Below, piece by piece: positions 1,057 to 12,441 of a DNA stretch of 47,623 bases. Numbering within the stretch: the first letter of the stretch is position 1; the number at the start of each line of letters is the position of its first letter. This DNA comes from Escherichia phage TanjaMuster_Bas81, in the sequence record PQ850630.1; one strand, written 5' to 3'. The notes under the pieces were generated by a model. It did not search any database and was not told where the DNA came from. It saw only the letters and a program-made list of their open reading frames with translations. A program made the position numbers and the translations under genes.

Positions 1057-2473
1057 AAAAAGACTCTCAAGTGTGGCAATTGAAAAACTTGAACAGGTAG
1101 TAGGTAACTCAACTGCAAAGCCTGAGTCTGCCGTGTTTGGGCTTGTAGATAAGTTACTCCATGATGGCACTCCCAATGTCGTAAAGCGCCTTAAGATGAC
1201 AGCCACTGGGGTATCTGAAACTGATGAAGAACCAACAATATTAATTCCTGAGCGGATGGAACTTATCCTTTACCCACGGCGCTTTAAGGTGTTTTATGGT
1301 GGTAGGGGCAGCTCCAAGAGCCGAACGTGTATATCCTACCTTATCGAAAAGGCAAGGTTCCGCAACAGTCGCGTTGGTTGTTTTCGTGAGATACAGAACT
1401 CAATCAAAGAATCAAGCTATGCAGAGCTGGTCGATGAGATAAACAGGAAGGGCCACACTCAGGAATACCGTTGCGTTGATGGTGAGATAACACACCACTC
1501 AACGAGGTCAAAGTTTGTTTTTCGTGGCCTGTGGCGAAACATAACCGCCATCAAAGGTATGGCTGGTCTTACAGATGTGTTCTGTGAAGAATCCGAGAAT
1601 ATTAGTCAGGTGTCATGGGATACATTAATCCCGACAGTCCGTGCGGCTGGCTCTGAAATTATTATTGTTTTTAACCCAAACAAAGAGACTGACCCCACGT
1701 GGACTAACTTTGTTGAGCCTTACATCGACAAGATGGTAGGTGGCATATATCAGGATGATGATATTGTTGTTGTTAATGTTAACTACGTCCACAACCCGTG
1801 GTTCACTGAAGAACTTAAACAGCACATGAACCAGATGAAGGCAGTGGATTATGATCGCTATCTGTGGGTGTATGAAGGGTTATTCAACAAGCGTTCCGAA
1901 GAAGCCGTGCTTGGCGGGAAATGGCAAACGCTGGACTTCGAGCCATCTCCCGAATGGGGAGGGCCATATTATGGCATTGACTTTGGTTTTTCTCAGGATG
2001 CAACCGCAGCAACAGAATCATATGTAGAAGATTTTGGCGATGGACGCAGAAACCTGTATATCTATCGTGACTTTGCAAAGGTTGGCCTTGAGATAACTGA
2101 CACGCCGGAAGCGATGAGATCAGCATTCCCAAATTCAGAGAAGTACAGATGGTATGGGGATTGCGCAAGGCCTGAAACAATAAGCCATATACGCCGATCT
2201 GGATTCGACATTCATCCGTGCGCAAAATGGCCGGGGAGCATTGAGGACAGTATTACGTGGCTGCGTGGGTGTGACAGGATTTACGTGCACTCAAGATGCA
2301 AGCACGTCATTGAAGAGATGACAATGTACAGCTACAAGGTGGATAAATTAACAGGGAACATACTCCCCGACATAGTTGATAAATACAATCACGCGATTGA
2401 TAGTTTACGCTATGGACTTGGAGACCACATCGTTCAGCGCGGTAGCGGGATGCTAATCCGGCGCAGGCGATAA
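1049..2473 (+). CDS. terminase large subunit
   Basis: 474-aa ORF with Walker A-like GGRGSSKSR near N-terminus and C-terminal nuclease-type acidic residues; typical terL size and position. Confidence 0.85.
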   Translation: MARKRLSSVAIEKLEQVVGNSTAKPESAVFGLVDKLLHDGTPNVVKRLKMTATGVSETDEEPTILIPERMELILYPRRFKVFYGGRGSSKSRTCISYLIEKARFRNSRVGCFREIQNSIKESSYAELVDEINRKGHTQEYRCVDGEITHHSTRSKFVFRGLWRNITAIKGMAGLTDVFCEESENISQVSWDTLIPTVRAAGSEIIIVFNPNKETDPTWTNFVEPYIDKMVGGIYQDDDIVVVNVNYVHNPWFTEELKQHMNQMKAVDYDRYLWVYEGLFNKRSEEAVLGGKWQTLDFEPSPEWGGPYYGIDFGFSQDATAATESYVEDFGDGRRNLYIYRDFAKVGLEITDTPEAMRSAFPNSEKYRWYGDCARPETISHIRRSGFDIHPCAKWPGSIEDSITWLRGCDRIYVHSRCKHVIEEMTMYSYKVDKLTGNILPDIVDKYNHAIDSLRYGLGDHIVQRGSGMLIRRRR

Positions 2474-2500
2474 AAATAAAGCCCTCATCTGAGGGCTTAA
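2474..2500 (-). terminator. intrinsic terminator (hairpin aagccctc/gagggctt followed by T-run on minus strand)
   Basis: perfect 8-bp GC-rich stem at 2479-2498 with 4-nt loop; rev-comp is followed by TTTATTTTT; ends the minus-strand two-gene cassette and lies just after the terL stop. Confidence 0.6.
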
Positions 2501-2694
2501 AGCTCATCTCTCAATCTTGATATATCACTCACAGCGGCATACATGTTAGATTTAACGCGTTCAGACTTTTCATCTCTGCATCTGTCTTTTATTATTGAAA
2601 TTGCAATATTGAAAGCCTCAATCTTTGCCTCCCTTATCGCTTGATTCCTTGGTTTCACTTTCGCCTTCGGTATTTCACGAAGGCATCTCGGCAT
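2497..2694 (-). CDS. hypothetical small charged protein (65 aa)
   Basis: ATG 4 nt downstream of the stop of the upstream minus-strand ORF (possible coupling); helical, charged sequence MPRCLREIPKAKVKPRNQAIREAKIEAF...; same frame as C-terminal part of track ORF 2497..2850. Confidence 0.3.
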   Translation of the reverse strand: MPRCLREIPKAKVKPRNQAIREAKIEAFNIAISIIKDRCRDEKSERVKSNMYAAVSDISRLRDEL

Positions 2695-2854: not shown

Positions 2855-2955
2855 TTCTTTTGTTCCTTAATCTCTTGTCGATAAGATGATTCTACATCAC
2901 CACTATATCCACTTCAACATTTATTATTATTGTTGATAAACCCGCATCACCACAC

Positions 2956-8636: not shown

Positions 8637-9077
8637 ATGAAACTATCGCAACGAGGTAAAAATTTCATCAAGTCATTCGAGGGGCTTGAACTACGCGTTT
8701 ATCCAGACCCAGCAACTGGCGGCGCACCATATACAGCGGGTTACGGTCACACTGGCGGTGACATAAAGCCCGGCATGACGGTAACACAAGCAATGGCTGA
8801 CGCATGGTTTGATAAGGATGTGGAGAAGTTCGAATCCGGCGTATCCGCGCTACTAACTGCGCCAACAACCCAGCCACAATTTGATGCAATGGTGTCTCTG
8901 GCGTACAACATCGGACTAGGTAACTTTGGTAAATCCACACTCCTGAAGAAGCACAATGCTAAATGCTACCAGTGCGCCGCTGGTCAGTTTCCTTTGTGGA
9001 ATCGTGCTAATGGCAAGGTTATGAATGGATTAACGCGGAGGCGTAACGCGGAGCGCGCTATGTATATGGGGCAATGA
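8637..9077 (+). CDS. endolysin (lysozyme, glycoside hydrolase family 24-like)
   Basis: N-terminal KLSQRG.NFIKSFEGL...GYGHTG motif typical of lambdoid R/R21-type lysozymes; AGGAGG RBS. Confidence 0.8.
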   Translation: MKLSQRGKNFIKSFEGLELRVYPDPATGGAPYTAGYGHTGGDIKPGMTVTQAMADAWFDKDVEKFESGVSALLTAPTTQPQFDAMVSLAYNIGLGNFGKSTLLKKHNAKCYQCAAGQFPLWNRANGKVMNGLTRRRNAERAMYMGQ

Positions 9078-9313
9078 AAAAGCTAAGCAACTGGCTGCTC
9101 GGCGTGTGGATTTCGTTCTGCTCGCTGTTGCAGTTATGGCCTGATGCAATGATGCATGTATGGGTAATGATGCCGGATGACCTGAAAGCGGCGCTACCGC
9201 CAATCGTGGTTAAAGGGGTGAGCTACTCAATCATGCTGATTGGCATCCTCGGCAAAATGCACGGCATGAGGAAAGAAAACCGGAGGCTGCGCGATGATGG
9301 CAACTCTCATTAA
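9074..9313 (+). CDS. putative holin (two TM segments, charged C-terminus)
   Basis: 79 aa, hydrophobic LLGVWISFCSLLQLW and VSYSIMLIGILG segments, basic/acidic tail; located between endolysin and Rz. Confidence 0.5.
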   Translation: MKKLSNWLLGVWISFCSLLQLWPDAMMHVWVMMPDDLKAALPPIVVKGVSYSIMLIGILGKMHGMRKENRRLRDDGNSH

Positions 9314-9791
9314 ATACTGGCGACCGCTGGCAATTATTATAATTGTTGCCGCTGGAGCGCTGTGGGTGGCAAATAAGGTATCCAATTATGGTGAACAGCA
9401 ATATGCCGATGGATATGCAAAAGCCATTGCCGAACAGAAGGCCGCAGAAGAACAAGAGGAGCAACGACGCAATGCAGAACTGCAAAAGATTCATGCCGAC
9501 GCACAGCAAAGGATTGACGCTGCGCGTAATGATGCTGTTAATGCTGCTACTAAGTCTGGCAGGTTGCAGCAACAGCTCGCAAATATCCGCAAGCAGCTCG
9601 TCGGATATTCCACCGCTGAGTCCATTGGCAATCCAGCCGCAGAAACCGGAGTTTTGCTTGCCCAATTGCTCTCAGAATCTGTCGAAAGAAATCGACAGCT
9701 GGCAGATTACGCTGACAGGGCCAGAGACGCAGGATTAGCGTGTGAGGCGCAATATAATTCATTGAGAGCGAGAAATGCTAAGCAGAGATAA
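9294..9791 (+). CDS. Rz: Rz-like inner-membrane spanin (i-spanin)
   Basis: N-terminal TM (LAIIIIVAAGALWVA) followed by long coiled-coil region rich in A/Q/E/R; GGAGG RBS; contains embedded +1-frame lipoprotein ORF. Confidence 0.7.
   Translation: MMATLIKYWRPLAIIIIVAAGALWVANKVSNYGEQQYADGYAKAIAEQKAAEEQEEQRRNAELQKIHADAQQRIDAARNDAVNAATKSGRLQQQLANIRKQLVGYSTAESIGNPAAETGVLLAQLLSESVERNRQLADYADRARDAGLACEAQYNSLRARNAKQR
9529..9738 (+). CDS. Rz1: Rz1-like outer-membrane lipoprotein spanin (o-spanin), embedded in Rz
   Basis: +1-frame ORF inside Rz with lipobox LSLAGC then Pro/Ser-rich mature region; start codon uncertain (ATG 9529/9532/9541). Confidence 0.6.
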   Translation: MMLLMLLLSLAGCSNSSQISASSSSDIPPLSPLAIQPQKPEFCLPNCSQNLSKEIDSWQITLTGPETQD

Positions 9792-9921
9792 GCGAAAAGA
9801 ATATGACAAGATGGCTTCTGATGTGGTAAGTGGTCGCGCTGGTTATCAGCCTGCGGTGAAATGCAGGCTAAGCAAATCGCCAAAGAAATGCTATGGAAAA
9901 CCACCTGAATCACTGCGCAAT

Positions 9922-9950
9922 AAAAAACCCCTCAATTGAGGGGTTTTTCT
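9922..9950. terminator. bidirectional intrinsic terminator
   Basis: cccctc/gagggg stem 9928-9943 flanked by A6 and T5 tracts. Confidence 0.75.
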
Positions 9951-9951
9951 T

Positions 9952-10089
9952 ATGAGTCAGCGATTCGCAGTCGCTGACTGCTACCAGAAAACATGTACCG
10001 AAGCTCACGTTGTCGTTACTTATAGCAAAGTAATAGTAGCAATAACCTTTCCCTGCGTCAACTCCATGCGCAATAAAAAAACCCCGTAA
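9952..10089 (+). CDS. candidate small hydrophobic peptide (45 aa)
   Basis: manual translation MSQRFAVADCYQKTCTEAHVVVTYSKVIVAITFPCVNSMRNKKTP; putative SD GAGGGG is buried in terminator stem; flanked by two terminators; speculative. Confidence 0.2.
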   Translation: MSQRFAVADCYQKTCTEAHVVVTYSKVIVAITFPCVNSMRNKKTP

Positions 10090-10099
10090 TGGGGCTTTG
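10074..10099 (-). terminator. intrinsic terminator of minus-strand cassette
   Basis: cccc/gggg stem 10082-10094, rev-comp followed by T7; directly after stop of gene 10102..10308. Confidence 0.6.
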
Positions 10100-10101
10100 T
10101 T

Positions 10102-10308
10102 TTAGAACTGAGTAATGCGAGCGTCTAAAATATTCCCATAGGTTCGCATTGCGTTAAGTTGAGTGAAGAGTAGATGCTTTTCAATTTCAGGAAGAAGCAT
10201 ATATTCAGGATTATTTTTGATAAAGGCATCAAGCATTTCCGCCCTTCCCCATAAGTCGCGAGCCTCATCAATAACTCTTTTTTGGTAAGGTTTCATTTCT
10301 TTAGTCAT
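10102..10308 (-). CDS. hypothetical protein
   Basis: 68-aa track ORF. Confidence 0.5.
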   Translation of the reverse strand: MTKEMKPYQKRVIDEARDLWGRAEMLDAFIKNNPEYMLLPEIEKHLLFTQLNAMRTYGNILDARITQF

Positions 10309-11975: not shown

Positions 11976-12193
11976 GAAAGTTCAGCACGATACACGAATT
12001 GGTTTTAGCTGATATTCGTGAGTCAAACGCCAGAAATAAGAAGTCAAGAAATCAGCGGCAAGATATTACTTTTCGCACACTGCTTAAGCAATCGATGCGC
12101 AATAAAAAGGAATGGAGATACAGACGCGACCGAGTTCTGATAAGACTGTGCAAGTTAAACATGAATAAGATACTTAAGGATATGACAAAATGA
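11972..12193 (+). CDS. hypothetical basic protein
   Basis: track ORF, ATG 11972 overlapping upstream stop (ATGA). Confidence 0.5.
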   Translation: MRKFSTIHELVLADIRESNARNKKSRNQRQDITFRTLLKQSMRNKKEWRYRRDRVLIRLCKLNMNKILKDMTK

Positions 12194-12441
12194 GCGCACC
12201 ACATATGCCGATGATGAATGAGGAAGGATTTTTGAACTGCCCATTCTGTGGCTGCAATGAAGTTAGCATTGCTGTCGATGAGGATGGGTGGGAGTACATA
12301 GAATGCGGAGATTGCTATTGCCGTACAGACGCATTTCGTAACAGAGAGCTAATGACTAAATCATGGAACACGAGAGAGGGACACATCTACACCGCAGACG
12401 ACTTCAATCAGGCAGCGGAGGAGCGCGATTATGGATTATAA
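12190..12441 (+). CDS. Lar-family restriction alleviation protein (zinc-ribbon)
   Basis: CPFCG...C..C motif and KSWNTRE segment match my recollection of the Lar (Rac prophage) family signature. Confidence 0.55.
   Translation: MSAPHMPMMNEEGFLNCPFCGCNEVSIAVDEDGWEYIECGDCYCRTDAFRNRELMTKSWNTREGHIYTADDFNQAAEERDYGL

Follow-up and report, generated by a model that had tools for sequence, protein, structure and literature searches.

A plasmid-related, predicted minus-strand small RNA unit behind the lysis genes of an Escherichia phage, a candidate orphan type I antitoxin RNA

Genomic setting of the element

The window analyzed here is the whole stretch of 47,623 nucleotides from Escherichia phage TanjaMuster_Bas81 (PQ850630.1), a siphophage genome of Skatevirus/Cedarrivervirus-like type whose closest genomes, at ~90% identity, are those of ASO78B, Bas77, Sf11 and INT59. 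Its lysis genes are read rightward and a block of small genes beyond them leftward; between the two lies a segment of 190 bp (Table 1), which a first-pass annotation, prepared from the sequence alone, had flagged as a terminator-flanked element containing either a small type I toxin-like peptide gene on the plus strand or a short non-coding RNA. The Rz gene of the window stops 130 nt upstream of terminator 1. For an extra 150 bp at 9762-9912, neither the phage nor the plasmid collection yielded a match, and a 54-aa plus-strand ORF (9775-9939), which ends in a relic of the Rz 3' end, matched nothing in Pfam, NCBIfam or PHROG.

Table 1. Features of the element and its surroundings (positions in the window)
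Feature	Position	Strand	Remarks
Lysozyme gene	8637-9077	+	Lysis genes
DUF7940 gene	9074-9313	+	Lysis genes
DUF2514/Rz spanin gene	9294-9791	+	Lipoprotein frame embedded
Relic of Rz spanin 3' end, left repeat copy	9913-9939	+	Codes ...LRNKKPLN*
Terminator 1, bidirectional	9921-9949	both	Perfect inverted repeat I4; fold
Predicted small RNA (sRNA), ~105 nt	9922-10026	-	5' tail, SL1, SL2, terminator hairpin
45-aa ORF	9952-10089	+	Judged non-coding; start, frame or stop not conserved
Stem-loop SL2	9955-9979	-	9-bp stem, 7-nt loop; the "perfect hairpin" of the first-pass annotation
Stem-loop SL1	9990-10011	-	AACGUG-A-GC-UUCG-GU-A-CAUGUU, cUUCGg tetraloop; 95.8% of cells paired
Predicted sigma-70 promoter of the sRNA	10033-10061	-	Promoter scan; -35 TTGACG 10061-10056, -10 TACTAT 10038-10033
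Right copy of Rz-end repeat, TGCGCAATAAAAAAACCCC	10067-10085	+	D1; matches empty-site sequence in L004-L007
Terminator 2, bidirectional	10074-10104 (scan: 10078-10098)	both	Flagged on both strands by terminator scan
Leftward small-gene block	10102-10308 onward	-	Ended by terminator 2
Lar restriction-alleviation gene	12190-12441		2 kb from the element

A duplicated Rz end with two terminators

The two terminators that had been proposed to bracket the segment are both present, as judged by inverted repeats, RNA folding and a terminator scan, and both fit the intrinsic bidirectional type, in which a G+C-rich hairpin lies between an A-tract and a T-tract. Terminator 1, AAAAAACCCCTCAATTGAGGGGTTTTT (9921-9948), is a perfect 13+13 inverted repeat with A and T runs on either side, and is predicted to end the minus-strand RNA described below (GGGGUUUUUU) as well as the rightward lysis transcript (GGGGUUUUUCUU). 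In each of the 7 distinct phage alleles, its minus strand has six T. The terminator scan left it unflagged, in our reading because the A/T extension of its stem uses up T residues, so that too few remain beyond the stem as counted. On the minus strand, RNA folding does yield the hairpin with six U behind it.

The 18-19-nt repeat reported in front of each terminator, TGCGCAATAAAAAA(A)CCCC, is likewise present (repeat family D1), and the full direct repeat covers 35 nt (9914-9948 versus 10067-10101), with 74% identity and a 14-nt exact core plus CCCC. A repeat of this length within 200 bp is far beyond chance. Most relatives (STGO-35-1, Bas77, ASO78B, Skate) have no insert; their Rz ends in ...YNSLRNKKAP*, with the last codons and the stop lying inside a single bidirectional terminator, TGCGCAATAAAAAAGCCCCGTAATGGGGCTT. 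In CECAV_048, DS8 and INT59, the left repeat is the true Rz C-terminus, and the stop codon falls in the loop of terminator 1. An insert of ~150 bp bounded by the duplicated Rz end and terminator was found in eight phage copies, namely the window, CECAV_048, INT59 (with INT55), NX263, DS8, Seszw_1 (with ZK22), an IMG/VR contig and a metagenome contig. Since the Rz end and its terminator flank the insert in filled sites and are single in empty ones, the repeat represents a duplicated target and not a regulatory motif. Terminator 2, kept directly after Rz in about 100 relatives, is the ancestral Rz terminator; the leftward gene block now stops at it, immediately before the sRNA promoter.

The element is carried by only about six distinct phage lineages among roughly 230 related records. 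Other insertions occur at the same site, including an HNH endonuclease gene (Seszw_1), a DUF1353 gene (Sf11, IME207) and the extra 150 bp of the window, which makes the Rz terminator a permissive hotspot. As an autonomous unit running from its own sigma-70 promoter to its own terminator between conserved genes, present in only some relatives and absent from close ones, the element corresponds to a phage moron; it differs from other morons in that its cargo is a non-coding RNA whose source can be traced to plasmids.

Anatomy and strand of the predicted RNA unit

The flagged 190 bp very probably constitute a self-contained minus-strand RNA gene of plasmid origin. The search for an antisense promoter that the first-pass annotation had suggested returned a sigma-70 promoter on the minus strand, TTGACG-17(TGn)-TACTAT, in which the hexamers are separated by a 17-nt spacer with TGn. 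With its 5' end placed 7 nt after the -10 hexamer, the predicted RNA folds into three stem-loops with a minimum free energy (MFE) of -40.8 kcal/mol and a z-score of -5.9. The perfect 9-bp hairpin noted previously exists both in the sequence and in this fold, as SL2, and its loop is inverted between alleles (CUGCGAA / UUCGCAG). A covariance model of the RNA (R1) gives a single strong match in the window, on the minus strand, at 112.8 bits. The phage element thereby offers what the RNA half of a type I locus has, a candidate small RNA with its own predicted promoter and terminator (9922-10061), and the fallback reading as a short non-coding RNA is supported as such, with the strand now assigned as minus. 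An Rfam search of the window at a permissive E-value produced only sub-threshold, terminator-like matches, the best scores being 29.5 bits for LLnc147 (gathering threshold 127) and 26 bits for RNAI (gathering threshold 47).

Several comparisons among the copies favor the minus strand as the functional one. The promoter scan gives a hit at the corresponding place in five independent variants, namely the window and the plasmid variants L012, L014, L017 and L018; the hexamers and the 17-nt spacing are invariant, and the spacer sequence differs between phage and plasmid. The -35 and -10 hexamers, this spacing, TGn and the six-U terminator are kept in all eight phage copies; across all 15 distinct variants the minus-strand RNA ends in six to nine U, and the minus-strand MFE lies below that of the plus strand in every one of them (15/15). 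Within the SL1 and SL2 helices, 32 G-U cells stand against 3 A-C cells, and pairing amounts to 90.5% of cells for the minus strand and 79.1% for the plus strand. The SL2 of IncX4 plasmids and all terminators have different sequences and still form hairpins at the same positions. Examination of fold and covariation in relatives, another check proposed at the outset, gave a divided answer: the hairpins persist, and column-wise covariation in the covariance-model alignment, a set of related sequences of low diversity, is not significant, with one pair changing on both sides and a score not above that of shuffles. Because covariation is not significant and the IncX4 SL2 was not re-registered by MAFFT or Infernal, the strand is argued from the G-U asymmetry and the per-sequence folds.

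Plasmid homologs and a type I-like cassette

When the sRNA core (9944-10034) was compared by blastn with 5426 complete E. coli genomes, 31 matched (about 0.6%); every match was on a plasmid, and no chromosomal match was seen. The full plasmid unit was present in 68 of 72,556 PLSDB plasmid records, from Escherichia, Salmonella, Shigella, Klebsiella and others. On these plasmids, the minus-strand sRNA and a divergent hydrophobic ORF of 33-36 aa (pattern MAE(V/L)LTAFIKAP...PHLF) make up a cassette of ~355 bp bounded by two terminators, and the two occur together in every plasmid variant examined. The ORF is kept in ColE1-like, IncX4, F-like and ~32-kb plasmids and is under purifying selection (pN/pS 0.18-0.51). 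A protein search with it yielded nine unnamed clusters, and no match was obtained in Pfam, NCBIfam, PHROG or PADLOC; the plasmid copy of the sRNA matched no Rfam family, giving only sub-threshold terminator-like hits. A search of the accessible literature for the peptide motif and for type I systems of small plasmids returned nothing specific describing the cassette.

The cassette occupies diverse settings. It lies apart from RNAI on ColE1-like plasmids of 1.9-3.6 kb, near relE on IncX4 plasmids, next to hicAB and Shedu on a Kosakonia plasmid, and beside higBA and partition genes on larger plasmids. The plasmid sRNA resembles ColE1 RNAI (RF00106) in its length of ~100 nt, its three stem-loops and its place beside the ColE1 origin of small plasmids, whereas the element scores below the RNAI gathering threshold, true RNAI scores 92-98 bits elsewhere, and the cassette is also found on IncX4 and F-like plasmids. 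For the same reasons, and with RNAI a separate locus in the small plasmids, we rejected a part in the control of ColE1 replication.

With regard to expression of the plasmid ORF, its Shine-Dalgarno sequence is buried in a predicted anti-SD hairpin, so that the ribosome-binding site would be occluded by structure, and this hairpin is held through differing sequences (UAUUCCUU/AAGGAAUA, CUCCU/AGGAG and ACUCCA/UGGAGU). In addition, a predicted 14-bp plus-strand helix (arm1:arm2) pairs a segment inside the sRNA gene with one just upstream of the ORF, spanning the sRNA promoter. In seven sequences, the helix and the anti-SD hairpin together are 96.7% paired, compared with 36-46% in slid controls, and their covariation (0.207 versus 0.158) was reached by 1 of 500 shuffles. 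Since the helix reaches into the sRNA gene, the leader of the ORF mRNA is predicted to overlap that gene. In RNAduplex comparisons of the sRNA with its own ORF region, trans complementarity was no better than in shuffles, which led us to drop a model based on trans-pairing alone, as for istR or orzO.

Type I toxin-antitoxin modules are found on enterobacterial plasmids and chromosomes and include hok/sok, tisB/istR-1, zorO/orzO and shoB/ohsC. The plasmid cassette resembles these modules in its short hydrophobic ORF with a sequestered Shine-Dalgarno sequence and a structured leader, in its adjacent sRNA of ~105 nt with its own promoter and terminator, and in its location beside other addiction and defense genes. 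It departs from them in having no sequence or profile similarity to known toxin or antitoxin families, and in the divergent arrangement of its genes, with a toxin leader that is predicted to run through the sRNA promoter. Judged by these sequence features, the cassette looks like an undescribed type I toxin-antitoxin module and its ORF is a candidate toxin. The type I idea raised for the phage locus survives in part: the phage RNA is homologous to the sRNA of a plasmid module with type I hallmarks, and the toxin-like ORF is absent from the phage, whose element differs from type I modules in having no toxin gene.

Relationship between phage and plasmid alleles

The RNA core of the window is 90% identical to the plasmid RNA gene, with values of 82-97% across the phage copies. 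The BLAST match between phage and plasmid spans only the transcribed core (9944-10034), and alignment extends a common layout, comprising the hexamers, the 17-nt spacing and the terminator position, from the -35 element to the terminator. This is also the extent of what the phages retain, as nothing of the neighboring plasmid ORF is kept. A tblastn search with the toxin-like ORF found nothing in 50,697 phage records and only noise in the window. The phages carry what would be expected of an antitoxin mimic, that is, a homolog of the RNA of the plasmid module without the toxin-like ORF.

The promoter spacer, -10 hexamer and terminator are phage-specific and common to all phage copies, which points to a single capture. 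The transcribed core gives a different picture. The core of the window is closest to a 3.6-kb E. coli plasmid (90%), that of Seszw_1 to a 1.9-kb Salmonella plasmid (96%), and those of L022 and L027 to Klebsiella-type plasmids (97%), and the cores of the window and L022 are only 82% identical to each other. Multi-nucleotide alleles occur in mosaic combinations across phage and plasmid copies, and runs of 40-42 nt identical to a plasmid allele comprise the 5' tail and SL1, starting at or beside the first nucleotide of the RNA. In these sequence comparisons, the interleaving of phage alleles with plasmid alleles indicates repeated exchange, for which the simplest account would be repeated gene conversion between the phages and resident multicopy plasmids. 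Homologous recombination with high-copy plasmids could leave such shared alleles behind as a neutral by-product.

With respect to sampling, a first pattern scan of IMG/VR recovered only DS8 and Seszw_1, and a first scan of metagenomes found nothing. A looser gapped pattern retrieved two further phage-type sequences at three loci (L022, identical to L028, and L027), together with more plasmid copies. One other locus, L020 in a Bacteroidetes metagenome-assembled genome, matches the looser pattern by chance only and was discarded.

Possible function and competing explanations

The best reading, offered tentatively, is that the phages carry a captured orphan antitoxin-like sRNA unit that would silence the plasmid module during infection. 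An ancestor phage would have captured the minus-strand unit from an enterobacterial plasmid, the insertion taking place at the terminator after Rz and duplicating it. During infection, host sigma-70 RNA polymerase would start at 10061-10033, read leftward for ~105 nt and stop at terminator 1, and the RNA would fold into SL1 with its UUCG tetraloop, SL2 and the terminator hairpin. On the plasmids, where the leader of the ORF mRNA would overlap the sRNA gene and the ribosome-binding site would be sequestered, the two genes would form a type I-like pair. By retaining the RNA alone, the phage might supply antitoxin-like RNA early in plasmid-bearing cells, replacing or supplementing the labile resident sRNA through pairing with the toxin mRNA leader. 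The toxin would thus be kept silent, and the plasmid module would not fire, for example as abortive infection.

The predicted anatomy of the unit, its homology to the plasmid RNA, the lack of a toxin-like ORF in the phages and the alleles shared between phages and plasmids are read directly from the sequences; from these we infer transcription of the RNA, its pairing with toxin mRNA, toxicity of the ORF and an anti-defense role. That the phage RNA acts as an antitoxin decoy is possible, though doubtful on balance. Given how rarely the module occurs (in about 0.6% of complete E. coli genomes and in 68 of 72,556 plasmid records), selection for such a decoy would be intermittent. The more specific proposal, a first phage-encoded type I antitoxin mimic in the form of an orphan antisense sRNA kept matched to plasmid alleles by gene conversion, must be considered rather unlikely at present.

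Among the alternatives to a captured antitoxin-like unit, the strongest is that the element is a neutral relic. Illegitimate recombination at the Rz terminator would have brought in a piece of plasmid DNA, which would have persisted because it is small and harmless, with no working parts in the phage other than the two terminators, which keep the converging lysis and leftward transcripts apart. The sporadic distribution of the element among relatives, the acceptance of other insertions by the same site (the HNH endonuclease and DUF1353 genes and the extra 150 bp) and the lack of significance in the formal covariation test of the RNA are all compatible with such an origin. We nevertheless regard it as unlikely, given that the -35, -10, 17-nt spacing, TGn and six-U terminator are retained in 8/8 phage copies despite strong divergence of the spacer and flanks from those of the plasmids, that only the minus strand accommodates the stem substitutions as G-U pairs, that the retained segment runs from -35 to terminator with nothing of the neighboring ORF, and that the unit has stayed intact through repeated replacement by plasmid alleles.

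In general build, the RNA resembles enterobacterial Hfq-type sRNAs: its 5' tail is single-stranded, stem-loops follow, and its terminator carries at least six U. This build and the position of the RNA adjoining the lysis cassette would also suit a trans-acting phage sRNA directed at a host chromosomal or phage mRNA, for example in lysis timing or host reprogramming, in which case the plasmid homology would reflect origin only. This possibility appears improbable. No complement of at least 11 nt is present elsewhere in the 47.6-kb phage genome, where about 1.5 would be expected by chance, and blastn of the 5426 E. coli genomes matched plasmids only, in a search that would miss short seed matches. 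Furthermore, the stretch that stays identical to plasmid alleles comprises the first 40 nt of the RNA, antisense to the predicted plasmid leader.

Parallels to a captured antitoxin-like unit can be drawn with several phage RNAs and antitoxin homologs. The lambda OOP RNA is a short phage RNA that is convergent to its upstream gene and whose terminator overlaps the 3' end of that gene. Similarly, the loop of the sRNA terminator, terminator 1, contains the Rz stop codon in CECAV_048 and DS8; unlike in OOP, overlap does not extend beyond the shared terminator hairpin, Rz of the window ends well upstream of it, and there is no sequence relation between the two RNAs. The pseudo-ToxI of phage phiTE is reportedly a phage RNA mimic of a type III antitoxin, which binds a protein toxin. 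Phage-encoded antitoxin mimics also include DarG-like mimics (PMC10760071). The element shares with pseudo-ToxI and other antitoxin mimics the presence in a lytic phage of a homolog of an antitoxin component, here an RNA, without a toxin, as well as evident sequence exchange with the host element. It would differ from pseudo-ToxI in its mode of action, pairing as an antisense RNA with the mRNA of a type I toxin.

A role in phage defense has long been suspected for type I toxin-antitoxin systems. In the searchable literature, no phage countermeasure at the type I or RNA-antisense level was found. If the proposed reading is true, a phage could silence an abortive-infection or addiction system based on a membrane toxin, and the same evidence would define a new plasmid type I family on ColE1-like, IncX4 and higBA-bearing plasmids. 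A phage orphan antitoxin RNA that tracks the alleles of multicopy plasmids would make the phage-defense question for type I systems directly testable. The comparison also exposes an unannotated two-gene cassette, consisting of an sRNA and a putative membrane peptide of 33-36 aa, on clinically common plasmid backbones, and provides a clear case of recurrent phage-plasmid recombination over ~80 nt. Even if the RNA is inert, the duplicated terminator is explained.

The 45-aa plus-strand reading frame

The weakest explanation is the one with which the analysis of this locus began, namely that the 45-aa ORF on the plus strand encodes a membrane toxin whose start is occluded by terminator 1 and which would form a type I locus in the phage. 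The observations behind it are accurate insofar as the ORF exists, with GAGGGG located 7 nt before its ATG and within the terminator 1 stem, and the same combination of ATG and GAGGGG is found in CECAV_048 and INT59. The proposed hydrophobic core is present as a segment (VVVTYSKVIVAITFPCV), with weak hydrophobicity, and the peptide has no convincing transmembrane segment and no match in Pfam, NCBIfam or PHROG. The comparison with relatives that had been suggested as a decisive check goes against the ORF, which is broken in five of the seven other phage copies while the hairpins are kept throughout. Among the eight phage copies compared, the ATG is absent in DS8 and Seszw_1, a 1-nt indel throws the C-terminal half out of frame in L022 and L027, and no stop is present in DS8, Seszw_1 and NX263. 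Moreover, the stems tolerate changes that break plus-strand pairing, and no plus-strand promoter is flagged within or upstream of the element, the nearest one (10178-10205) lying downstream. As the phage element has no conserved small hydrophobic toxin ORF of the type I kind, a plus-strand toxin is scarcely credible. A 32-aa ORF on the minus strand is likewise broken in phage copies, by indels that are not multiples of three. Recognition of the 45-aa ORF as non-coding allows a false small-protein annotation to be removed from at least one deposited genome (cecavS48_021 in CECAV_048).

Variation at the insertion site

The position immediately 3' of the spanin gene Rz is an insertion hotspot, and the genes found there differ between phages (see the table below). 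In Seszw_1 and ZK22, a partial second copy of the Rz 3' end follows the HNH endonuclease gene, while the DUF1353 gene of Sf11, IME207 and swi2 has been annotated as 'tail assembly chaperone'. In the window, the Rz 3' end is itself interrupted by approximately 150 extra bp (9762-9912) containing a 7-bp hairpin (AGCCTGC...GCAGGCT), such that the protein ends in ...SLRARNAKQR*, with its stop at 9791, instead of ...SLRNKKPLN*, and the old Rz tail forms the C-terminal end of a 54-aa ORF. Searches of the phage and plasmid collections returned no match to this extra segment, whose sole other copy lies in a metagenome contig (L027). At the start of the leftward block, the position of the first gene is taken by different small genes in relatives.

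Features at the insertion site and next to the plasmid cassettes
Feature	Sequence	Coordinates	Strand	Remarks
HNH endonuclease after Rz	Seszw_1 (L003)	1974-2474		also in ZK22
DUF1353 gene after Rz	Sf11 (L008)	1290-1631		also in swi2
DUF1353 gene after Rz	IME207 (L009)	1290-1631		also in swi2
54-aa ORF	window	9775-9939		
First gene, leftward block	window	10102-10308	-	PF21825 'crAss001_48 related protein', E 3e-16; phrog_774
cecavS48_021, hypothetical protein over sRNA	CECAV_048 (L001)	2542-2679	+	deposited annotation
DS8 gp55, hypothetical protein over sRNA	DS8 (L002)	2498-2638	-	deposited annotation
-10-like motif	plasmid L014	475-490	+	by eye
-10-like motif	plasmid L015	~2520-2535	+	by eye
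-10-like motif	plasmid L016	~1178-1192	+	by eye
-10-like motif	plasmid L012	~2530-2545	+	by eye
-10-like motif	plasmid L017	~2918-2932	+	by eye

Database records and annotations

Approximately 60 records of 36-46 kb (MZ375295-MZ375355, 'Salmonella phage seszw') terminate no more than about 5 bp from the equivalent of window position 10066, where the sRNA promoter adjoins the right copy of the repeat. The shared end probably reflects either a break in assembly at the duplicated terminator or a deliberate choice of that site for linearisation. The hypothetical proteins deposited over the sRNA, cecavS48_021 and DS8 gp55, are probably false gene calls.

The plasmid cassette

In NZ_CP044965 (L014, 1888 bp) and similar ColE1-like plasmids of 1.9-2.2 kb, the cassette of approximately 350 bp, comprising the sRNA and the toxin-like ORF, lies directly upstream of the RNAII promoter. 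It is among the very few features these plasmids carry besides the origin, which is consistent with a role in plasmid maintenance. Directly upstream of the left terminator, an extended -10-like motif (TGTGATATAAT, TGTTATGAT) recognized by eye on the plus strand is conserved in five plasmid lineages. A consensus promoter scan did not flag this motif; it may serve as promoter for the toxin-like mRNA, with transcription passing through the left terminator hairpin.

Loop forms of the sRNA stem-loop

Comparison of the SL2 loop of the sRNA (window 9962-9972) with the homologous loops of two phages (L001 and L002) and four plasmids (L012 and L014-L016) revealed two reverse-complement forms of its 7 nt, CTGCGAA versus TTCGCAG/TTCGCAC when read on one strand, both present among phages and among plasmids. 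The hairpin thus appears to have been inverted, and loop identity might define specificity groups of an antisense pair.
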